Positions 3,494 through 39,548 of a DNA stretch of 64,000 nucleotides are shown here, piece after piece; the stretch's first letter is position 1; every line of letters begins with the position of its first letter. Source of the DNA: an uncultured Candidatus Micrarchaeota archaeon. Lineage in GTDB: Archaea > Micrarchaeota > Micrarchaeia > Anstonellales > Bilamarchaeaceae. The position numbers and the translations under genes are program-made. Below the pieces are notes generated by a model that saw only the letters and a list, made by a program, of their open reading frames with translations, ran no database searches and was not told the origin of the DNA. The DNA lies in NCBI GenBank assembly GCA_963714085.1, contig OY970229.1, positions 1,440,001-1,504,000 of the forward strand. The letters are read 5' to 3'.

Positions 3494-4207
3494 CTAGTCG
3501 TCCTCGGGCTCGTGCAGCAATCCGATTTCGTTCTGTATGAGCCTTATGCATTCCCTGCAGAAACCCAATCTGACATTGATTATCTGCCTGACGAAGTGGT
3601 CGATCCCAGGTGCCGCCTGCATCAGGCAGTCGGGATGATCGCAGTGCCACTCGTCCTCTAGGGTCTTTGCGTTCCTGCCATAGCTCTCGATGAGGACATG
3701 GCCTGCCTCGTGACAGACCGCGATCTCCAAGGCGCGCATGGCGGTCTCCGGATGCTTGGTGTATTCCCCGCGCACGGTGTCGAAGCCGAAGGCGCCGCGC
3801 AGCCCTGACACGGTGACGAGCGCGCCGCCCCGGTATCTGTTGGCGCCTATCACCCTCTCCTCGGTTTTGTCCTTCGGGCTATCGACGCAAAGGAATATGG
3901 GCTCGTCGCTCAGGCCGATGCCTATGACGAGGCTACCCTGCCGGGATGCCTTCATGATATCGAAGTATTCGGGGCCGAGCCGCGGCACCAGGAAGCTATC
4001 GAACCTCATGTGCAGGGGCCCTTTCGTGCCGAGCGCATTCAGCAGCTGCCCGCCCATCCTGACTCCTTTTACCGCCTCATCGCTTATGGGCCGGACGTCG
4101 TATCGGATGTCGAACGCCCTGAACCTGTCGAGGCCTCTGGATGCGGCCGCTATCTCCGCGGCGCTCAGGCCGGGCCTGTGGATGAGGCTGAACATGACTT
4201 CCGTCAT
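3494..4207 (-). CDS. Archaemetzincin-like zinc metalloprotease paralog 2, intact HExxH
   Basis: HEAGH...HCDHPDCLM...FCREC matches the archaemetzincin HExxH..H-Cx4CxM..CxxC motif, with an insertion before the third His. Confidence 0.8.
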   Translation of the reverse strand: MTEVMFSLIHRPGLSAAEIAAASRGLDRFRAFDIRYDVRPISDEAVKGVRMGGQLLNALGTKGPLHMRFDSFLVPRLGPEYFDIMKASRQGSLVIGIGLSDEPIFLCVDSPKDKTEERVIGANRYRGGALVTVSGLRGAFGFDTVRGEYTKHPETAMRALEIAVCHEAGHVLIESYGRNAKTLEDEWHCDHPDCLMQAAPGIDHFVRQIINVRLGFCRECIRLIQNEIGLLHEPEDD

Positions 4208-4213
4208 GCATAT

Positions 4214-4238
4214 ATTGTTATAGAAAGAATGTTTAAAT
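4214..4238 (-). promoter_or_regulatory. Conserved TATA promoter of paralog 2
   Basis: Minus strand TTTAAACATTCTTTCTATAACAAT with identical spacing to the ATG. Confidence 0.7.
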
Positions 4239-4267
4239 GCTCCTATACCCGGACCGACGGAAGGCCT

Positions 4268-4954
4268 TCAGGCCGACCTTAGCAATCCGAGCTCCATCAT
4301 CATGCGCTCCATGCATTCCCTGCAGAAACCCAAATCGCGCCTCACGATGCGCTCGACGAAATCGCGTAATCCGGAATTCTCCTGCATCAGGCATTGGCGA
4401 TAGGGGCAGTGCGTTTCCTCGGCGGGGCTGTCGCCGCTCCTCCCATAGCTTTCAACGAGTATGTGTCCCACCTTGTGGCAGATGCCTAGCTCCAGGGCCT
4501 GCATGGCGATGTCCTGGTCCCTGCCATAGCTCCAGTTCCTGCTGTCGAAGTCGAACGCCTTGCGCAGCCCTGACACGGTGACGAGCGCGCCGCGCTGGTA
4601 TCTGGCCATGCCCATCGCCTGCTCCTGCTCCACGTCGTCATTGATGGCGAAAATCTGCGTATCCGTCAGGCCGACGCCTATGACGCCCATCCGCTCCTGT
4701 ATGAGCTGCCTGAAGTCCGTGCCCGGCTCCGACCTGAGGAATGCGATTGGATCGAGGCGCAACGGCCCGTCCGAGCCGAGCGCCTTCAGCAGCTGCCCGC
4801 CCATCCTGACGCCCTGCACAGTGTCAGCGCCTATCATCCGGACATCGTATTCCGCGCCGTAGGCCGCGAACCTCCTGAAAGCCCGTGCCGCGGCATCCAG
4901 CTCAGGGGCGGCCAGGCCGGGCTTGCAGAAGAGCGTGAATGTCGTTCTCTTCAT
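4268..4954 (-). CDS. Archaemetzincin-like paralog 3 (HKVGH, catalytic Glu to Lys)
   Basis: HKVGH...HCPYRQCLM...FCREC; strong similarity to paralog 2. Confidence 0.75.
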   Translation of the reverse strand: MKRTTFTLFCKPGLAAPELDAAARAFRRFAAYGAEYDVRMIGADTVQGVRMGGQLLKALGSDGPLRLDPIAFLRSEPGTDFRQLIQERMGVIGVGLTDTQIFAINDDVEQEQAMGMARYQRGALVTVSGLRKAFDFDSRNWSYGRDQDIAMQALELGICHKVGHILVESYGRSGDSPAEETHCPYRQCLMQENSGLRDFVERIVRRDLGFCRECMERMMMELGLLRSA

Positions 4955-4960
4955 GCATAT

Positions 4961-4986
4961 ATTGTTATAGAAAGGATATTTAACTG
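4961..4986 (-). promoter_or_regulatory. Conserved TATA promoter of paralog 3
   Basis: Minus strand CAGTTAAATATCCTTTCTATAACAAT. Confidence 0.7.
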
Positions 4987-5002
4987 TTCTGTTTCAAGAC
5001 GC

Positions 5003-5695
5003 TCAGACCGGCCGCAGATCCCTGAGTCCCGCCCTTATGCGGTACTCGCATGCCCTGCAGAAGCGAAATCCGGCATTCACGATGCGCCCGAGGAAGTCCT
5101 CCAGCCCGGAGCTCTCCTGCAACAGGCAGGAGCTGTTGGGGCAGTGCCGTTCTCCCATGGAGCCCCTCGCGTTCAACCCATCGGCTTCGATGAGCACGTG
5201 GCCGGCCGCCCTGAGCACGGCGAGCTCCATCGCACGCATGACTGCCTGCTCGTCCTTGTACCGTCCGGTTTCCGTGTCGAAGCCGAAGGCCTTGCGCAGC
5301 CCTGAAACGCTGACCAGCGAGCCGCGTCGGTATCTGCTCGCGTCCATCACTTCATGCTCCCTCGCATCCAATCCTACGTTGGTGGATACGAACACCCGCT
5401 CTTCGGTCAGGCCGATGCCTATGCTGCCGACACTGTCCCATAAGGACTGGTCCGGCACATCCGCCATAAGGAATACGCTGGAATCGAGATGCAGCGGGCC
5501 GCGCGTGGTGAGCGCTTTCAGCAGCTGCGCGCCCATCTTCATCTTCTCCACCGCCCCCTCGCCGATAAGCCGGACGTCAAATTGGACATTGTATTTCGCG
5601 AGGCTGTTCATGGCGCGCCTGGCGGCATAAATTTCCGTGGGCGCGATGCTGGGCTTGGAGAGGACGCTGAACATGGGCCCTTTCATTTTTCTCAT
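5003..5695 (-). CDS. Archaemetzincin-like paralog 4 (RAAGH)
   Basis: RAAGH...HCPNSSCLL...FCRAC; shares YxxGxLVxVSGLR with its neighbours. Confidence 0.75.
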   Translation of the reverse strand: MRKMKGPMFSVLSKPSIAPTEIYAARRAMNSLAKYNVQFDVRLIGEGAVEKMKMGAQLLKALTTRGPLHLDSSVFLMADVPDQSLWDSVGSIGIGLTEERVFVSTNVGLDAREHEVMDASRYRRGSLVSVSGLRKAFGFDTETGRYKDEQAVMRAMELAVLRAAGHVLIEADGLNARGSMGERHCPNSSCLLQESSGLEDFLGRIVNAGFRFCRACEYRIRAGLRDLRPV

Positions 5696-5701
5696 GGGTT
5701 T

Positions 5702-5727
5702 ATTGTTATAGAAAGGATATTTAACTG
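5702..5727 (-). promoter_or_regulatory. Conserved TATA promoter of paralog 4
   Basis: Minus strand CAGTTAAATATCCTTTCTATAACAAT, identical to that of paralog 3. Confidence 0.7.
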
Positions 5728-5743
5728 CTCCCTTACCTGGGCA

Positions 5744-5795
5744 TCAGGCGCCGACCATCATCCTCAGCACGTCGCGGATGCCCGGGGCGAAGCCC
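5744..5795. repeat. 52-bp exact direct repeat of the DUF63 gene 3' end (other copy 6597-6648)
   Basis: tcaggcgccgaccatcatcctcagcacgtcgcggatgcccggggcgaagccc occurs at both positions. Confidence 0.95.
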
Positions 5796-5834
5796 TTGCG
5801 CGTAAATCGGCCTCATCCGGGTCCTGTAATCCTT

Positions 5835-6554
5835 TCATTCCCTCGCCAGCATCTCCGTCTCGCGCGCTATCATCCTGGCGCAGTCCTCGCAGAACTCGAG
5901 CCCCCGCCTGGCTATCTCGGTCAAATCCGTGATGTGGGTGAGCTTCTGCATGATGCATGACCAGTGCCTGCAGTTCTCGGTCTCCTTGTCATCCTGCCTC
6001 ATGCCCAAGCTCCGTATGAACACCCGGCCCATCTGGCGCGTGAGCATCGCATCCATTATGCTCGCCACGAGCTCCGGGTCGCCGTATTCCCGCCTTCGCG
6101 GGTCAATGGGCACAGTGGAATAGAACCTCTCGCGCAGTCCATACACGCTGACAAGCGCGCCCGTGCGGTACCTGCCCAGGCCAACCGGCTCGTATTCCGA
6201 CCCTCCCCTCCCTCCGATCTGCAGGCGCAATTCCTTCTCGGTCAGGCAGACGCCTATGATGCCGGGCCCGATGCGGGCCGGGTCTATGGGGCGCGTCCCA
6301 TCCATCGGCACGAGGAACGTCTGCGGGTCTATATGTGCCGCGCCTATGGCTCTTATGATCCACTCGTGGTGCCAGAACAAGCTCACGCCCCTGAGCGCAC
6401 GGCTATCGAGTTCCTGGATGTCGTACCGCAGGGGCTTCGCGGCGTCGCCTTCGGGGCCGTAAGCAGCGAACCTGTCGAGCGCCCTGCGCGCACCCTGCAG
6501 CTCCGGCTGGAGTATGCCCCGCTCGTGCAACAGCCTGAGCTTCGGTCCTTTCAT
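5835..6554 (-). CDS. Archaemetzincin-like paralog 5 (RQMGR, all catalytic ligands lost)
   Basis: CRHWSCIM...FCEDC retained; GRYRTGALVSVYGLR shared with the other paralogs. Confidence 0.7.
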   Translation of the reverse strand: MKGPKLRLLHERGILQPELQGARRALDRFAAYGPEGDAAKPLRYDIQELDSRALRGVSLFWHHEWIIRAIGAAHIDPQTFLVPMDGTRPIDPARIGPGIIGVCLTEKELRLQIGGRGGSEYEPVGLGRYRTGALVSVYGLRERFYSTVPIDPRRREYGDPELVASIMDAMLTRQMGRVFIRSLGMRQDDKETENCRHWSCIMQKLTHITDLTEIARRGLEFCEDCARMIARETEMLARE

Positions 6555-6596: not shown

Positions 6597-7439
6597 TCAG
6601 GCGCCGACCATCATCCTCAGCACGTCGCGGATGCCCGGGGCGAAGCCCATTATCATCAGGACGAGCGCGATGTAGCGCTTGTCGCCCGCGTCCATGTCCT
6701 CCTTCATGACGAAATAGGCCGCTGCGAAGGACACCGCTATCTTCACCAGGTAGAACGCGAAATACGTCCGCCCTATCGTGCCGATGCCGCTCGCCACGAC
6801 ATGCTGCTCGAAGTACTGTATGCCGCTTATCCTGGAGAACACGTCTATGACGAAGAACGTGGCAGCGCCGTCCAGCGCATGGCCGGCGACGATGCCAGCC
6901 AGGACGCTGTCCCTGAAATACAGGTACGCGATGGCGGCCGGGACCGCGGCCAGCAGCATCACGGGCACCGCGTAGAGCGCGTACTGCATGAAGGGGACCA
7001 GCAGCAGGAAATGGGGGAGCCAGAGCACGAGCCCTACGTACATGAGCCATTCCATCCTCTTCATCCGATAAAGGACCGCCATGGAGACGAAGAGCAGGGC
7101 CGCGGTGACCAGGTATATCCCGGGCGAGGCGGTGAGGAAGCCGTAATCATAGATGTGCGAATTGAGCACGAGCGCATGCACCGGGGTCACGGGCTTGAAC
7201 ACCCCGCTGCCTATCGCATCCGTGACCACCCGCACGGTGGAGCCCAGGAGCACGAAGCTCAGGACGCCGCAGACGAAGCTCCGGTCGAACGCGATCTTCG
7301 TCTTCAGGTAGCGGTAGAGCAGGTAGACCGCCGCTATCGCGATGATGGCGTAGGTGAGGGTGTTCACGACGTTGTAGCCCTCGTGCGAGAGCAGCGGTTC
7401 GAGATAATAATCATTAATAAAGCTATCCAGAGTAGGCAT
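6597..7439 (-). CDS. DUF63-family membrane protein
   Basis: GYNVVNTLTYA, GHALDGAATF, EQHVV and GFAPGIRD motifs; multiple TM segments. Confidence 0.85.
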   Translation of the reverse strand: MPTLDSFINDYYLEPLLSHEGYNVVNTLTYAIIAIAAVYLLYRYLKTKIAFDRSFVCGVLSFVLLGSTVRVVTDAIGSGVFKPVTPVHALVLNSHIYDYGFLTASPGIYLVTAALLFVSMAVLYRMKRMEWLMYVGLVLWLPHFLLLVPFMQYALYAVPVMLLAAVPAAIAYLYFRDSVLAGIVAGHALDGAATFFVIDVFSRISGIQYFEQHVVASGIGTIGRTYFAFYLVKIAVSFAAAYFVMKEDMDAGDKRYIALVLMIMGFAPGIRDVLRMMVGA

Positions 7440-31211: not shown

Positions 31212-31316
31212 GGTCCCACTCCCGCAATATGCCTCTGGATTATGAATATCCTGTTATATTTATTAAGTTACCCGCACCGCTCCTCTTTAAAATACCTTTG
31301 TTACATAAATTATAAC

Positions 31317-32705
31317 ATGCCAAAGGACTCGCCGCCAGTCTCTTCCATGGTCACAACGCCAGAGCCTCACGCCAGGCCGCACCCCAGGCCGAAATTCCCC
31401 ACACCCGAGCCCGAGCGCAGCAGCAGGCCAGAGTCCCAAGAAGACGATCTGGTGGGGAAGGTGCTCGACAACCGCTATCTCATCATCAAGCGCATCGGTG
31501 AAGGCGGCATGGGGCACATATACCTTGCCACCAACAAGAATATGCCGGGCAGGATGTTCGCAATAAAGGTGCTGCGCAAGGACCACAGTTTTTTCCAGAA
31601 GGAGGCCATGGCAGTCCAGAAAATCGGCCACGACGGCATAGTCAAGGTCTACGACTATGGCGTGATTGAAGACGGGAAAAAAGACCGGCCTTACCTGGTC
31701 ATGGAGTACCTGGAGGGCGTGGACGTGGGCGGACTGCTCGAGAAGAAGAAGCGGCTCAGCTGGCCAGTGGCCAGGGACATAACACTGCAGGTCTGCGCCG
31801 CGCTCCAGGCGGCCCACGAGAATGGCGTGATCCACCTGGACATGAAACCCCAGAACGTGTTCCTCTCAGACCCCGAAGGGAAGGATTCCGTGAAGGTCCT
31901 GGATTTCGGAATCGCATGGCTTCCCGAAAGCGTGGCCGGCATAGAGTCCTCTTCGGCCAAGGGCTTCGTGGGCACCGCGGCCTACGCGCCGCCCGAGCAA
32001 TCCCGCGGTTCCAAGGAGTGCGACCACCGTTCCGATATCTATGCAGTGGGCGTGATGCTCTACGAGATGCTCTGCGGCAGCCTACCGTTCGTCAGCACGA
32101 GCGTCAGGGAGACCAGGCTGATGCACGCCGAGTGCGCGCCCCCGCCTTTCTCGACCTACGGGCAGACCAGCGGCATACCGGACGGAGTCGAGGCGGTGGT
32201 CATGCGCTGCCTCGAGAAGACCAAGGAGGGGCGTTACCAGTCCATGACCGAGTTCGCGCAGGCGCTTCTGGCCGCGGACCAGAAGTCGCGGCAGCTCCTG
32301 GACATGCCCGACGTGCTGCAGGAGGACGACCACGAGAGGCCTCCGCGCAACAGGATGGAATCCTCGTCATTCGTCGGATGGATCGCCGCAGCGCTCATAG
32401 GTGTCGCGGCGGCCTGGGGGATCTGGGCCCACAGCAAAGGCAGCGGCGATGCCCCGGTTGAACTGAGACAGGACGCGCAGCCCGCACTGGCCGAGACGCC
32501 TGACGCTTCGGCAGAGCGACCTCCAGAGAAGAAGGAGCAGCCCAAGAAGCCACACAAGCCGCACAGGGCGCACCGGTCGAACGCCGGGAGCCATCCAGAA
32601 GCGCAGCCATCCCAGAATGAGGGGCATCCGCCCGCCAATCAGGCCAAGACCCTCCTCGGTCAGCCGGTGGACGATTCGGCTGAAGAGGGCTATTCTCCGG
32701 AATGA
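31317..32705 (+). CDS. PknB-type membrane Ser/Thr protein kinase
   Basis: GEGGMG, AIKVL, HLDMKPQN, DFG, GT..Y.PPE and SDIY; TM helix and Pro-rich tail. Confidence 0.9.
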   Translation: MPKDSPPVSSMVTTPEPHARPHPRPKFPTPEPERSSRPESQEDDLVGKVLDNRYLIIKRIGEGGMGHIYLATNKNMPGRMFAIKVLRKDHSFFQKEAMAVQKIGHDGIVKVYDYGVIEDGKKDRPYLVMEYLEGVDVGGLLEKKKRLSWPVARDITLQVCAALQAAHENGVIHLDMKPQNVFLSDPEGKDSVKVLDFGIAWLPESVAGIESSSAKGFVGTAAYAPPEQSRGSKECDHRSDIYAVGVMLYEMLCGSLPFVSTSVRETRLMHAECAPPPFSTYGQTSGIPDGVEAVVMRCLEKTKEGRYQSMTEFAQALLAADQKSRQLLDMPDVLQEDDHERPPRNRMESSSFVGWIAAALIGVAAAWGIWAHSKGSGDAPVELRQDAQPALAETPDASAERPPEKKEQPKKPHKPHRAHRSNAGSHPEAQPSQNEGHPPANQAKTLLGQPVDDSAEEGYSPE

Positions 32706-34344: not shown

Positions 34345-36525
34345 TCAGAGCCTGCTGCGCGGGACCCTCACGACCGTATCCTTGTTGGCGCCCAGGTCCC
34401 TGCGCCTATCCGCGTTCTCAGCGAGCGTCCTCGCCATCTTCCTGTAGTCCTCTGCAGGGGCGCCGGGATAGACCGCGGTTTCCAGCATCTTCGGCCTCTT
34501 GGGGTTCATGTCGAAGCCTATCAGCGCGACCGGTTTCGCATTCTCGATTACCTCCACGAGGAACCGCTCCGAAGGCAGGGTCTTGAGCCCCTGCCTGAAC
34601 CTGGCATCGAGCTGCCTGTTGGCTTCCGCCGGGACGTCCAGCCCTATCGCTTCGGGCTTCGGCTCGCCGTTGCCTTCGGACGAAGGGAGCTTCTCCAGGG
34701 AAGCTATCCGCGCCCTGCTTCTCGCATGCGTGATCTCGAACACCAGCACGTTTAACTCTCCGGCGAGCTTCCTCCTCATCCTTGCGAGGTCCTCGGTCCG
34801 CACCCCGCAGGCCTCCAGCGCCTCGTTCCCCGGCGGGTTTATCGCGACCACTCCGGATTCGACCAGGCTGAACCCGTTCTGGACCATGCCCCGGAGCGTG
34901 GCGTCTGTCGCAGAATAATCCGGGCCGAATGTCGCTATGACCGTGGGAGCGAAAGCGAGGTTCTCATGGACCGCCTGGAACAGTTTCGTGAGCGCTTCTG
35001 TGGAGAGCCTGTGTATGCTGTGCAGGATTACGGTGTCGGCCTCAAGCACGCGGCACCCTTCGAGCGACTTGAATCCCCCCATGGGGACGTGATGGGGGTC
35101 TATGTCCGCTCCGGTCTCCTCGGCCGCCCTCGTGAGCGGGTCGGGGTAGAGCGACACGCACGCGACAGAGCCCTGCAGCAGGTTCCCGAAGCACCTTATC
35201 AGCCCTGCCATCTCCCTGAACGCGGAGAGGTTGCGCAGCCTCCTTCCCAGCGCCGCATCGCTTGCGTCCGTCCGCTCGCCGCGCTCGAGCGCGAGCTCCA
35301 CCGCCTGGTCCGCGGATAGCCCCTGCCCGGCGCAGAAGGCGAGCCAGACCGACGGGTTCGTGCACAAGCGCGCCTGGACCGTCTCATCGCTCACCCCGGT
35401 CGACCTTGAGATGGCGCGCACAGTGGCCGGGCCCGGCAGCGACGGAATCCTGTCCATGATTATCCGGTCCACGATTTCATAGCCCCTGGTCCTGGCCTTC
35501 CCGAACGGGCAGCTGCACAGTTCCCTGTTCGACATCCTCTTGAGGAAAACCTCGTCGCCCGCTCCGTCCATCCAGGCGATCGCCCGCGCCTCGGCCGCAT
35601 CGCGCAGCGCTGTATCGGAATCATATGCCTCCTGGACCGTGTTGCGGCTTATGGTCAGGGCTTCCGCGAGCGCGTTGGCCGACGGGATTCCGTCGAAAGA
35701 CTCCAGCCTGCTGGCGATTATCGCTTTGAGCCTGTCGCGGATTTTCCGCTTGGCGTTCTTGAAGCTGCAGTTGTTCGCTTCGGTGCTGCTGAGATTGTCC
35801 AGGAACCGCTGCTCCTCCAGGCCGTCCAGCCATTGGACCGCCCTCGCCTCTGCGGCATCCTTCAGCCCGGGGACGGACTCGAAGCACTTGGTTATGATGC
35901 GGGTGCTGAGCCCCATCGCCGCGGCCAGCGCCGTTGCGGACGGCAAGCCTTTGAACGAGGGTATCTTCTCCTTGGCGATTATCCGTCCGAGGATTTCGCG
36001 CGCCCTTGCCTTGGCCCCATCGAAATCGTTCAGGTCCTTTTCGATCTGGACGAATTTGCTCACGAACTCATCGTCTTTAAGGGTCCCCATCCAGGCCACC
36101 GCCCTCTCTTCCACAGCAGGGCGCATGGCAGCGTTCGCCCTGAAGCGCCTGGAAATCGCACGGAACCCCAGGTGCATTTCCTCCGCAAGAGCCGTGGGCG
36201 TGGGCAGCCCGTCGAAAGACGCGATTCTCCTGAGGATGAATCCGTCCAAGAGCCCGTGCATCCTGGCATTGGCCTTTTCGTAAGGGCAGGTCGTCAGCTG
36301 CGAGCCGCTTATCGTGCGCAGCAAGGCCCCTTCGTCAAGGCTCTCCAGCCATTCCACCGCCCTCGCCTCTGCAGCATCGCGCAGCGACGGATTCGAGTTG
36401 AGATGGCGGTTTATCGCGTGGATGGACACGTCGGGAATCGCGTCATGGAGCGCGGTGGCTGAGGGTACGCCGTCGAACGATGGCAAGAGCGCGAGTATCC
36501 TGCTGTCAAGGTCCCTCTTCGTCAT
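34345..36525 (-). CDS. Protein with about 4.5 tandem ~86-aa GntR-like HTH repeats
   Basis: Repeated SFDGxPSxTALA...RDAAEARAxxW units. Confidence 0.75.
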   Translation of the reverse strand: MTKRDLDSRILALLPSFDGVPSATALHDAIPDVSIHAINRHLNSNPSLRDAAEARAVEWLESLDEGALLRTISGSQLTTCPYEKANARMHGLLDGFILRRIASFDGLPTPTALAEEMHLGFRAISRRFRANAAMRPAVEERAVAWMGTLKDDEFVSKFVQIEKDLNDFDGAKARAREILGRIIAKEKIPSFKGLPSATALAAAMGLSTRIITKCFESVPGLKDAAEARAVQWLDGLEEQRFLDNLSSTEANNCSFKNAKRKIRDRLKAIIASRLESFDGIPSANALAEALTISRNTVQEAYDSDTALRDAAEARAIAWMDGAGDEVFLKRMSNRELCSCPFGKARTRGYEIVDRIIMDRIPSLPGPATVRAISRSTGVSDETVQARLCTNPSVWLAFCAGQGLSADQAVELALERGERTDASDAALGRRLRNLSAFREMAGLIRCFGNLLQGSVACVSLYPDPLTRAAEETGADIDPHHVPMGGFKSLEGCRVLEADTVILHSIHRLSTEALTKLFQAVHENLAFAPTVIATFGPDYSATDATLRGMVQNGFSLVESGVVAINPPGNEALEACGVRTEDLARMRRKLAGELNVLVFEITHARSRARIASLEKLPSSEGNGEPKPEAIGLDVPAEANRQLDARFRQGLKTLPSERFLVEVIENAKPVALIGFDMNPKRPKMLETAVYPGAPAEDYRKMARTLAENADRRRDLGANKDTVVRVPRSRL

Positions 36526-36615: not shown

Positions 36616-36999
36616 ATGGTCCTCTGTTATCGCAAGGGCTCGCGCGCGGAGCACGAGCTCATAGACTATTTCTCCCAGAAAGGATACTGCGTGATACGCG
36701 CGGCCGGCTCGGGCGTCAACTCCCTCTCCCCGGACATCCTCGTCTTCAGGCGCGGGGTGCAGTGCGGCATAGAGGCAAAGGCGCACGAGACCACCTGCCT
36801 CGGGATAGACCGCGAGCAGTTCGAGAACCTCAGGAAATGGGAGGACGTGAGCGGCATAAACTGCTATATCGGGTGGAGGCGCAGCCGCGAGCCCTGGTAC
36901 TTCGTGCCCCTATCGGTCTTCAAGGAGAACGAGAAGAGCTTCTCGGTCAACTGGGGCCAGGCGCAGGCTGTGGGGAAGAAGCTCGAGGAGTTCGGCTGA
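36616..36999 (+). CDS. hjc: Archaeal Holliday junction resolvase
   Basis: KG.RAE.EL, RAAGSG, PDIL and IEAK. Confidence 0.93.
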   Translation: MVLCYRKGSRAEHELIDYFSQKGYCVIRAAGSGVNSLSPDILVFRRGVQCGIEAKAHETTCLGIDREQFENLRKWEDVSGINCYIGWRRSREPWYFVPLSVFKENEKSFSVNWGQAQAVGKKLEEFG

Positions 37000-37069
37000 C
37001 CCCACAAAGCCACTAAAAAAGAGACATACTTTTTTATATTGTTCCAATCACAACATATCCTGGGGTATC

Positions 37070-37555
37070 ATGAAACTTCACGGAAACAATCCGGGCATCG
37101 TGAAAGCCGGCGCAGCAAAAACCGCCAGGAACGAGTTCAAGACAAGCTCGTTTTCCGGGCGGCTGCGCACGGGCGTAGTCGCCAGCGCATTGTTCGCAGC
37201 GTCCGTGACCGGATGCGCCGAGACGTCTTATTCGGACAGGCAAAGCACGCCGAATCTGGTTGCTAAGGTGGACCAGCAGAAGACAGGCGACGGCGATAGA
37301 CTCGATACGACGATTGCTGGCGTGCTTGCCGCGACCGGATTCATGACAGCGATCGGGGTTTTCGCGTACTATTCCGGCAAGAAGGAGATGCCATCTGAAC
37401 GCGTCATGGTCCTATTTACTCTCGACATACTGGCTTCTGCCTGGTTAGTGGGATACGCTGCCACTGACGGGCGTATGGGCGGCGGTCCCCAGCCACTGTC
37501 CAATTCTCCGTTCCCGTACGGGTCTCCCACGATAAGCCTGCCGGGCCATCGCTGA
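37070..37555 (+). CDS. Putative lipoprotein with two TM helices (paralog A)
   Basis: SFSGRL..G.VA.ALFAAS..GC lipobox-like leader shared with 38074..38571. Confidence 0.65.
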   Translation: MKLHGNNPGIVKAGAAKTARNEFKTSSFSGRLRTGVVASALFAASVTGCAETSYSDRQSTPNLVAKVDQQKTGDGDRLDTTIAGVLAATGFMTAIGVFAYYSGKKEMPSERVMVLFTLDILASAWLVGYAATDGRMGGGPQPLSNSPFPYGSPTISLPGHR

Positions 37556-37660
37556 TTTCCCCGCTTGCGATATCCTGGTGTCAGCTCATTATCCTCTTCA
37601 TCCTTGAGTTCCAGTAGCGAGGGCGCAATCTTTAAATCAACATCGGGCACAGAATCATTC

Positions 37661-37912
37661 ATGACCGAACAACTCCAGCTGAAGCAGCCCAATCCCCTAT
37701 CCGAGGTCCATGTGTACCAGAAGGTCCAGTCCGAAAACAGGTTCTCGGATCTGAAGACGTGGCTGACCAGCATAGATCCCCATCTTGGCGAGTGCATAGA
37801 CAAGGGGAAGTTCGTCCTCTCGCTCGCGAAGATCGAGAACGTGACGCTCGCCGTCAACGTCGGCCCCACAGGCGCGAAGAAATTCACCTTCGGGTTCGAC
37901 GTCAGGTTCTGA
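37661..37912 (+). CDS. Small hypothetical protein
   Basis: TTTAAA about 25 nt upstream of the ATG at 37661; ends FTFGFDVRF. Confidence 0.5.
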   Translation: MTEQLQLKQPNPLSEVHVYQKVQSENRFSDLKTWLTSIDPHLGECIDKGKFVLSLAKIENVTLAVNVGPTGAKKFTFGFDVRF

Positions 37913-37913
37913 G

Positions 37914-37957
37914 TATCTCTTCCATCCTCTCTATCCGATAATTGGTCACCGCCACGC
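37914..37957. repeat. Displaced copy of the kae1 3' end (39/44 identical to 38583-38626)
   Basis: Minus strand encodes VAVTNYRIERMEEI then LRT-stop; all five mismatches are synonymous. Confidence 0.92.
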
Positions 37958-38073
37958 TGCGCAGATAACCCGCCAGCCTGACGTTATGAGTACCTGGTCC
38001 TTGTTGCCACAAAAATACTGAAAGGGACATACATTCTTATATAGTTTGAATTACAACTTATTCCGGGGTTCCC

Positions 38074-38571
38074 ATGAAAAGTTCTATTAAACATTCTGGC
38101 GTAGTCGAGGATTCTGCAGCAGTCAAGAAAATCGCCTCCCGCAACTCGTTCAGGTCCAATTCCTTCTCAGGAAGGTTGTGCTCCGGCCTGGTCGCCGGCG
38201 CACTGTTCGCGGCTTCCCTTGGCGGTTGCGCGGACACTGCCTATTCACAGAAGCAGAGTTCGGGCGGAGAAGCAATCACACAGCCGGATAAAGGAAAAGA
38301 CCTGACTCCGCTGGATAACGCGATTATCAGCACGTTTGCCTCAGGAGCTGCCGGTTTTGGGCTCTATGAAGGTGAAGGCAGCAAGGTTGACAAGTTCCAG
38401 ATCGTGACTATTTCAACGCTCTCGTTTGCTGTTTTGTTTTTAACGCTCGAAGCGGTAAGGCACTCGAATAAGCATGGAAGCTCCGGGGGATATCCGCCCG
38501 TAGGATGGTCGCTGTGTGGCGATTGCGTTGATCCCGCACCCGCGCAGTCCATGGGTCCGATTCAGCGCTAG
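38074..38571 (+). CDS. Putative lipoprotein with hydrophobic segments (paralog B)
   Basis: Same leader and similar upstream promoter as 37070..37555; more AT-rich than neighbours. Confidence 0.65.
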   Translation: MKSSIKHSGVVEDSAAVKKIASRNSFRSNSFSGRLCSGLVAGALFAASLGGCADTAYSQKQSSGGEAITQPDKGKDLTPLDNAIISTFASGAAGFGLYEGEGSKVDKFQIVTISTLSFAVLFLTLEAVRHSNKHGSSGGYPPVGWSLCGDCVDPAPAQSMGPIQR

Positions 38572-39548
38572 CGCCGCTTCATTATCTCTTCCATCCTCTC
38601 TATCCTGTAATTAGTGACAGCCACGCACTTCTTCACCGACATCGCGCCGTATTTCCTGAAGAGAACCTCTCCGGCGTAAGCGATCATGGCGCCGTTGTCG
38701 CGGTTGAACTCGTTGGGCGCCACGCCGAACTCGACCGAGTCCTCCTTGCACATCGTGCCGAGCATCTCCTGCAACCGTTTGTTCTGCGCGACCCCGCCGC
38801 AGCAGATGAGCTTTTTCTTCTTGGTCAGGAACAGCGCGCGTTCCGTGGCCTCGCACGCCATGGCGAACGAGGTCTCCATGAGCGAGAACGCCAGATCGTT
38901 CCTCTTCGCCCCGCCCTTGTGCAGCTTCTCAGCTGCGGTCAGAAGCCCAGAGAACACCAGGTTCATGCCTTTCACGCTGTAGGGGAGCTCGATGTATCTT
39001 CCGCCGGACGCGAGCTTCTCGAGCTGCGAGCCGTGGGCGTATTTCAAGCCGATGACCCTGCCGAAGCTGTCGAACAGGTTCCCGATCCCTATGTCCAGCG
39101 TCTCGCCCAGGACGTGCCACGCCCCAGCTCTCCTGACCAATATCTGGCTGTTCCCTCCGGAGAGATAGAGCACGAGCGGGTCGCGCAGGCCCGTCAAGTG
39201 CTCCGAGACCGCGATGTGGGCGTAGCAGTGGTTCACTCCGATTATTTTCTTGCCGAAGCGGCCCGCGAGATAGCGCGCCCCGGCTATCCCGACAGCGAGA
39301 GGGGAGCCGATGCCAGGGCCCTGGGAGAACGCAATCAAATCAACATCTTCCATGCGCATGCCCGCATCGGAGAGCGCCTTTTCAAGCACAGCGCCGAACA
39401 CATCCGCATGGTGGTCCGCTGCCTTCCTCGGGAGTATGCCTTCCTCCTTCGGCCTGTAGACGTCCGCTGCGTTGGAGAGGACCTTCCCATCCTTCACGAT
39501 TCCCACGCCCAATGTATGCGCCGTGCATTCGACGCCTAGAGTTATCAT
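38568..39548 (-). CDS. kae1: tRNA t6A threonylcarbamoyltransferase Kae1/TsaD
   Basis: LGVECTAH, FSQGPG, NHCYAH, LSGGN, GETLD and DNGAMIA. Confidence 0.96.
   Translation of the reverse strand: MITLGVECTAHTLGVGIVKDGKVLSNAADVYRPKEEGILPRKAADHHADVFGAVLEKALSDAGMRMEDVDLIAFSQGPGIGSPLAVGIAGARYLAGRFGKKIIGVNHCYAHIAVSEHLTGLRDPLVLYLSGGNSQILVRRAGAWHVLGETLDIGIGNLFDSFGRVIGLKYAHGSQLEKLASGGRYIELPYSVKGMNLVFSGLLTAAEKLHKGGAKRNDLAFSLMETSFAMACEATERALFLTKKKKLICCGGVAQNKRLQEMLGTMCKEDSVEFGVAPNEFNRDNGAMIAYAGEVLFRKYGAMSVKKCVAVTNYRIERMEEIMKRR

Follow-up and report, generated by a model that had tools for sequence, protein, structure and literature searches.

Genes and features of the kae1-hjc interval

The window analysed here is a 64,000-nt stretch from the genome (G000) of an uncultured Micrarchaeota archaeon. 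At the locus of interest its plus strand carries, in this order, a DUF116 gene, a gene for a protein of 726 amino acids (aa), the Holliday junction resolvase gene hjc, lipoA, an 83-aa ORF and lipoB, after which kae1, a CAAX protease gene and S24e follow on the minus strand (Table 1). The product of kae1, an essential gene of tRNA modification, matches PF00814 with 231 bits in a Pfam profile search and the PDB entry 2ivn with an E-value of 8e-94; the named sequences nearest to this kae1 carry the label Micrarchaeota. The insert at kae1 is 610 bp long, below 20 kb, and contains one orphan ORF (lipoB) and no mobile-element gene.

Table 1. Features between hjc and kae1, in window coordinates. G001 is a genome of the same genus; numbers with L denote loci.
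Feature	Position	Strand	Remarks
Live hjc (Holliday junction resolvase), ends EFG-stop; left border of the variable slot	36616..36999	+	Pfam PF01870
Leader and cargo gene lipoA (37070-37555, 161 aa)	37000..37555	+	lipoB paralog, 38% identical; absent from G001
Scrap of another kae1 3' end (RMKRIMS-stop), convergent with lipoA	37581..37604	-	L088 tail 20/24
Stranded scrap of an hjc 3' end (EFQ-stop)	37606..37617	+	12/12 bases equal to the G001 and L043 hjc ends
83-aa ORF, resident kae1 neighbour	37661..37912	+	G001 ORF 73% identical; native codon use
Stranded old kae1 tail	37884..37957	-	repeat 37914-37957, LRT-stop (37902), RRTRR-stop antisense to the 83-aa ORF
49-nt spacer, presumed far end of the incoming DNA; joint to old tail 37957/37958	37958..38006		without informative match
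AT-rich leader of lipoB	38007..38073	+	homologous to the lipoA leader
Cargo gene lipoB, 165 aa, lipoprotein-like orphan	38074..38571	+	convergent with kae1, stops overlap; absent from G001
Live copy of the 44-bp repeat (kae1 codons 308-322)	38583..38626	-	repeat comparison
Live kae1 (TsaD/Kae1, 326 aa)	38568..39548	-	ends EEIMKRR; Pfam PF00814, PDB 2ivn

The leaders of lipoA and lipoB are 67% identical over 254 aligned columns, which include the N-terminal part of the coding regions, and this homology begins just behind the hjc stop codon. Neither lipoA nor lipoB has a Pfam family match. Among 138 candidates of 90-289 aa, no homolog of lipoB was found except lipoB itself, and its Atlas matches (at most 0.86, with low recognition) serve as leads only. 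An earlier note on this DNA had spoken of an incoming lipoprotein gene; that the gene is incoming is upheld below, while the word lipoprotein, which derives from a lipobox-like motif recognised by eye with neither a family nor a homolog behind it, is softened here to lipoprotein-like. The 83-aa ORF has no Pfam family and an uninformative Atlas match (0.79), and the origin of the 49-nt spacer was not found in the genome or in the fetched loci. GC3 is 82% in both kae1 and the 83-aa ORF, 67% in lipoA and 58% in lipoB.

The 726-aa gene (window 34345-36525) contains internal repeats spaced 258-261 nt and has a GntR-type HTH match. A different gene occupies the same slot in L042, and no stranded DUF116 tail was detected beside the 726-aa gene at the threshold of the scan described below. 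A Ser/Thr protein kinase with a membrane segment is encoded near tRNA-Lys (window 31242-32705); L042 has one too.

A new kae1 end and a stranded old tail

The 3' part of kae1 is present twice. The live and the stranded copy of the 44-bp repeat are alike at 39 of 44 bases and are spaced 669 bp apart; across the genome (one contig of 1,571,539 bases, both strands) the next best match reaches just 29/44, so that the repeat is unique and a chance origin is rejected. In the kae1 frame, the live gene ends in VAVTNYRIERMEEIMKRR-stop and the stranded copy in VAVTNYRIERMEEILRT-stop. The base differences between them (T/G, C/G, T/C, C/T and A/C) fall in the same five codon pairs that had been listed before, and 5/5 are silent (p = 0.004 under the stricter null of an identical duplication, in which the live copy takes silent changes only and the stranded copy any change). 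Both reported stop overlaps were recovered as well, that of the stranded stop (37902) with the convergent 83-aa ORF and that of the live stop with lipoB. Past its TGA the stranded frame continues as RRTRR to a further stop at 37884, which matches the SRRTRK-stop of G001, so the old kae1 tail was probably longer than EEILRT.

The repeat contains a 23-bp identical block at its end. At the five differing sites, G001 agrees with the live copy four times and with the stranded copy never, and L042 agrees with the stranded copy at three; with G001 favouring one copy and L042 the other, the 44 bp alone would not tell which allele was resident. After EEI, the live tail resembles the kae1 ends of other lineages (EIM in L043, L044 and L088). 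Because solved homologs align up to residue 320 and the change starts at residue 323, after EEI, the function of Kae1 is probably untouched by it.

At window 7039, the coding sequence of a DUF63 gene gives a 24/33 match, which was taken as chance. In diversity-generating retroelements, the differences between template and variable repeats occur at adenines; those in the kae1 repeat lie elsewhere, and such an element was rejected as its source.

An empty site in a genome of the same genus

A search for kae1 in 41 genomes gave a match in 39. G001 has DUF116, hjc, the 83-aa ORF and a kae1 that ends in EEILRTSRRTRK, and it lacks lipoA, lipoB and the 726-aa gene. This is exactly the relative that had been predicted, with an EEILRT end (followed here by SRRTRK) beside the counterpart of the ORF at 37661 and no gene corresponding to that at 38074. 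Relatives do not all carry both copies, an arrangement that would have spoken for another history; they differ from one another, and G001 is empty. The stranded copy (LRT-stop-RRTRR-stop) aligns with G001 through the entire 83-aa ORF at 77%, and this alignment together with the GC3 values suggests a resident origin for the 83-aa ORF and the LRT tail and an outside one for the lipoprotein-like genes. No donor with lipoA or lipoB was found among the fetched loci and the 138 candidates.

The repeat, the empty site in G001 and the silent differences bear out the view that kae1 carries a replaced C-terminus, with its old tail stranded one gene downstream. The scar is real, well supported and of a known principle, equivalent layouts being in print for bacteria.

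Extent of probably foreign sequence in the live gene

Sequence affinities suggest that the last 40-45 or so codons of live kae1 are probably foreign. Compared with L042, the live gene diverges by 13% in codons 1-280 and by 25% in codons 281-307; compared with L043 and L044, divergence is 24-25% in codons 1-280 and 12-15% in codons 281-307. Informative sites place a change point at codon 278-285, siding with L042 before it and mostly not after it: 120/156 and then 4/14 with G001 as comparator, 132/176 and then 3/15 with L043, and 134/174 and then 5/18 with L044. The permutation p is at most 0.007 for four of the five comparators and 0.17 for L046. Given that the repeat starts at codon 308, the foreign tract seems to be longer than the repeat.

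A tree of codons 281-322 loses the pairing of G000 with L042, with weak support (53-54%), and in codons 43-75 the two are nearly as divergent as in the 3' tract. L042 may itself carry a foreign kae1 tract, since its own kae1 tail is altered. A second sign comes from the kae1 genes of L047 and L088, which show 6 mismatches over 240 nt mid-gene and 18 over the 120 nt just before the tail. The informative sites of hjc gave no clear change point.

A second scar beside lipoA

Two further scraps lie between lipoA and the 83-aa ORF. The kae1 scrap matches the L088 kae1 end at 20/24 bases, a level found at one genome position, and the L044 end at 19/24, a level found at three, in a comparison for which 13 tails were tried and the borders were picked after the fact. 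The hjc scrap sits where G001 has its hjc end, and the live hjc ends in EFG as in L042. The sequence YWNSRMKRIMS-stop (37581-37616), which the earlier note had offered as a weaker candidate for an older kae1 tail, turns out to be composite: the 24 nt for RMKRIMS-stop are a kae1 end, and they adjoin 12 nt of an hjc end.

The interval is thus a mosaic of three parts (hjc, lipoA and kae1 scrap; hjc scrap, 83-aa ORF and old kae1 tail; lipoB and live kae1). Such a mosaic needs two events, meaning that the kae1-hjc interval was rebuilt twice. Either a G001-like locus received two additions, with hjc as the anchor of one and kae1 as that of the other, or displacement took place at kae1 twice in succession, as the older tail suggested in the earlier note would imply.

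Recurrence behind kae1 in relatives

We surveyed 167 distinct kae1 loci, leaving out G000 and G001 and counting tails where at least 800 nt of downstream sequence were present. Stranded kae1 tails occur in three of the nine loci with at least 75% identity (L045, L047 and L088), in 0/66 loci at 58-75% and in 0/72 below; two hits beside N gaps in L039 were discarded as scaffold artefacts. The recipient-type allele is represented by L043, in which kae1 is followed by a radical SAM gene. L047 and L045 are product-type alleles, with kae1, cargo, old tail and the same radical SAM gene as L043, and their cargo genes encode different membrane proteins. In the donor-type alleles (L044, L046 and L004; L091, L057 and L009) the same cargo families lie directly behind kae1, and no scar was found in them; homologs without a scar in this position indicate that the cargo genes are normal occupants of the slot behind kae1.

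The cargo genes of L047 and L088 are 93% alike and their joint is common, while their downstream radical SAM genes are different. As these two loci share cargo and joint, the kae1 cases represent about three independent events, including that in G000. The three joints fall in a span of about 12 nt (codons 307-311) and are not identical.

Tail scars across two genomes

The insertion feature is not special to kae1. We compared the last 90 nt of each called gene with 6 kb on either side, using a score of 18 or more; the genes were called with a simple model that misses some, so the scar rates are approximate. In G000 (1181 genes), there were 14 non-paralog hits downstream versus 0 upstream, 12 of which were kept on inspection; a whole-gene paralog missed by the filter and a repeat protein were dropped by hand. 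In G001 (1010 genes; 1,203,011 bases covered of about 1.3 Mb), there were seven downstream versus 0 upstream, and six were kept after a match inside another gene was dropped. The other G000 controls at this score gave six hits for 5' ends upstream, four for 5' ends downstream and seven for mid-gene segments, which by eye are mostly undetected paralogs or repeat proteins, with two that look like real duplicated gene starts. At G000 643553 and 757572, a short duplicate of a gene start lies upstream of the gene, the mirror image of a tail scar.

Hosts of the G000 scars include uvrC, rtcB, a dihydrolipoamide dehydrogenase-type oxidoreductase, ATP synthase D, RNase P p29, an ABC permease and DUF63. 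One orthologous host gene is scarred in both genomes, with joints at -58 and -51 and different inserts. Four of the 12 cases in G000 have an insert similar to the gene that follows the stranded tail, so that tandem arrays build up. Over the 18 cases from both genomes, the scar boundaries range from -18 to -73 nt before the stop, and no junction motif was found (p 0.43). No cargo gene that was scanned has a restriction-modification family match. When the 18 pairs are pooled, 46/65 differences are silent versus 36% expected for identical duplication (p 1e-8, with sites treated as independent); four pairs are identical, and in one pair all three differences are non-silent. Of the 12 cases in G000, kae1 alone has a clean counterpart in G001 with the site empty; most of the remaining 11 could not be polarised.

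G000 encodes three tyrosine integrases (PF00589), two of them beside tRNA genes; the nearest is 170 kb from kae1, and 10 of the 12 scar sites have none within 60 kb. DprA and ComEC have no family match in G000 (88% complete) or G001; DprA was found in G002.

Several scarred loci have features of their own. A scar of the same kind lies in an array of four paralogous genes (3494-6554), where the final 52 nt of a DUF63 gene come back unchanged one gene further downstream (window 5744-5795 and 6597-6648, minus strand). One cargo gene (L302:1647-2981, G000 152647-153981) encodes 444 aa with matches to Pfam sigma-70 regions 3 and 4 above the cut-offs, and related sequence is present in an array of G001. 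The rtcB gene (L306:1379-3256) has an intein-domain match (E 1e-11) in addition to its stranded tail. Behind the oxidoreductase gene, the cargo (L301:945-1954) consists of a minimal nucleotidyltransferase and a 132-aa neighbour, which we take to be an MNT-HEPN layout.

Origin of the scars

The explanation that we favour, with moderate confidence, is a one-sided, homology-anchored recombination with DNA from relatives, similar to homology-facilitated illegitimate recombination. Its observed basis is the repeat, the empty site, the silent divergence, the foreign cargo, the recurrence and the variable joints; the crossover position, the donor, the route of DNA entry and the joining enzyme or step are what we infer. 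Incoming DNA from a related archaeon, consisting of a kae1 3' part and the gene behind it (lipoB), would pair with the resident kae1 and cross over where the sequence is conserved, near codons 278-290. A stall of strand exchange in the divergent codons 291-307 may leave the free end close to the tail. The far end, which lies about 49 nt past the leader of lipoB, would then be joined to resident kae1 at codon 308 without long homology, and unrelated sequence is indeed found before the stranded tail at this far joint. In this way about 70 bp of resident kae1 would be exchanged for about 740 bp, leaving kae1 whole with a new end and the resident codons from 308 onward stranded beside their old neighbour. 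A second event of the same type would leave the kae1 and hjc scraps beside lipoA. The tails that survive may measure 18-73 nt because longer repeats are lost by recombination and shorter ones go unnoticed. Counting against anchored recombination, the clustering of the kae1 joints at codons 307-311 is tighter than a free joint needs. The same holds for the absence of a donor with lipoA or lipoB among the loci and candidates examined, the weak tree support and altered L042 tail noted above, the four identical pairs and the one pair with non-silent differences alone, the lack of a DprA or ComEC match in G000, and the limitation of a clean empty site to kae1.

That clustering would suit a different route, in which a small circle made of a kae1 3' piece and a cargo gene is integrated by host recombination through a single (Campbell) crossover in short homology. 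Trimming of the stranded copy may have followed, and a cassette flanked by repeats could excise and move again. The 23-bp block at the end of the repeat and the agreement of G001 with the live copy are as a crossover there would give, and L047 and L088 have common cargo and joint in front of different radical SAM genes. We nevertheless think a circle unlikely: if limited to the repeat, it cannot give the apparently foreign tract that starts about 25 codons upstream of it, the closest relative, L042, sides with the stranded copy at three of five sites, and no excised-form joint was seen among the contigs listed from three runs, where contigs drop rare forms. Quite improbable in our view is the relic of a site-specific element whose attP held a kae1 end, as for e14 in icd, reduced to one gene, or a mini-cassette that depended on an integrase acting in trans. 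The layout is the same as that described for icd/icdC in the available text (PMC13626634), G000 does encode tyrosine integrases, and kae1 was hit repeatedly in one clade (3/9 versus 0/66 and 0/72). However, the 12 hosts in one genome are unrelated, the joints at one orthologous gene are unlike, there is no junction motif, and the integrases lie beside tRNA genes in two of three cases and beyond 60 kb from 10 of the 12 sites; the cargo families are ordinary slot occupants behind kae1 in relatives, and the 610-bp insert holds no element remnant.

A true target duplication, with copies identical at insertion that diverged afterwards, would account for the identical pairs (4/18) and recalls the 46-47 bp repeats with 44-47 matches that appear in the available text of Furuta et al. 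(PMC2853133). The silent bias, in the pooled pairs and at all five sites of kae1, refutes it for kae1, where the live tail after EEI is moreover like the kae1 ends of other lineages and unlike random cargo sequence; we hold it to be very improbable as the general explanation, although it may apply to the identical pairs. The silent differences, their bias over 18 cases, the GC3 of the cargo and the change of affinity near codon 280 also favour allele replacement over decay of a local duplicate, as had been argued from the kae1 locus. Scarcely credible is an assembly chimera of two strains. The source organism is uncultured, the run X1 may be the source sample, and no contig among those listed spans the whole locus or positions 37378-37713, where the two scraps lie. 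Yet short-read contigs of X1 (37714-38368 and 38342-39238, 0 differences) run from the stranded tail through lipoB and the live tail, a contig of a second study (38429-38627, 1 difference) crosses lipoB and the live tail, and the layout recurs in three other assemblies. With the joints of both tails bridged by short-read contigs, the chimeric assembly that the earlier note had considered was not seen.

Relation to known systems

Insertion with long target duplication was defined by Furuta et al. for restriction-modification genes, and in the available text of that study no archaeal case survived their selection (PMC2853133). The kae1 scar is similar in having a repeat of more than 30 bp (theirs include 46-47 bp; here 44 bp with 39 matches) and a short insert without mobile-element genes, with an empty site in a relative (here G001). 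It differs in that the cargo is varied instead of restriction-modification genes, the repeat consists of the end of a core gene's coding sequence, and the kae1 copies are two alleles diverged at silent sites, whereas both copies in that system come from the target.

As far as the available parts of these sources go, anchored illegitimate recombination that displaces old 3' parts has been proposed for T6SS and Rhs arrays (PMC5361080), and homology-facilitated illegitimate recombination has been proposed as a source of variable segments in general, and a RecA threshold for E. coli is quoted there as near 30 bp (PMC2884548). Similarly to the V. cholerae T6SS immunity arrays, orphan Rhs and CDI ends, the scars combine what is probably a conserved upstream anchor with a non-homologous far joint, the old 3' part is pushed downstream, events stack and there is no integrase (PMC5361080, PMC2884548). 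Those systems are known from competent bacteria and from toxin-immunity loci, whereas the hosts here are housekeeping genes in a DPANN archaeon, what is stranded is a short tail without function, and the DprA and ComEC families of bacterial competence were not found in G000 or G001. In E. coli icd/icdC, as described in the available text, the incoming DNA of prophage e14 likewise gives a new 3' end, and the old end is left as a fragment on the far side with mostly silent differences (PMC13626634). However, e14 is a 15-kb prophage that excises (PMC13626634), and an element of its type has its own integrase at one end, whereas the kae1 insert has 610 bp and one gene, the joints are variable, the hosts are many and the nearest PF00589 gene is 170 kb off. 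No title on stranded gene tails in Micrarchaeota was found in the literature searched, mostly open-access papers without supplements, and the words integrase, mobile and direct repeat are absent from the main text of PMC12892359.

These observations indicate that a DPANN archaeon with a reduced genome can gain single genes without a transposase or integrase and with an essential gene left unbroken. Of particular value in such an archaeon are the unusually complete set of empty, filled and donor-type alleles side by side and the double scar. Such scars can be counted (they mark about 1% of genes in two genomes), and gene flow between relatives that differ by 10-25% can be read from them directly. 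The C-terminal tails of core genes are mosaic here, which can mislead phylogenies and strain comparisons. A bolder proposal, to which we give little credence, is that in this clade of Micrarchaeota the last 50 or so bases of core genes are standing landing pads, at which a host enzyme integrates and excises small integrase-free circles of a gene tail plus one cargo gene. If true, strains would swap accessory genes via an integron-like system over about 1% of genes, with the kae1-hjc interval as a favoured slot.

Repeats of other kinds are also present in these genomes. In L042, an AAA_14 ATPase gene (L042:7147-8379) lies between kae1 and hjc and is flanked by direct repeats of about 37 nt that are unrelated to the kae1 tail; its G000 homolog (1312677-1313768) has repeats of 64-73 nt around it and is close to tRNA-Glu and an integrase. 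The last 25 nt of tRNA-Ser, tRNA-Leu and tRNA-Ala are present a second time in the G000 genome (462889, 498324 and 615913, respectively).
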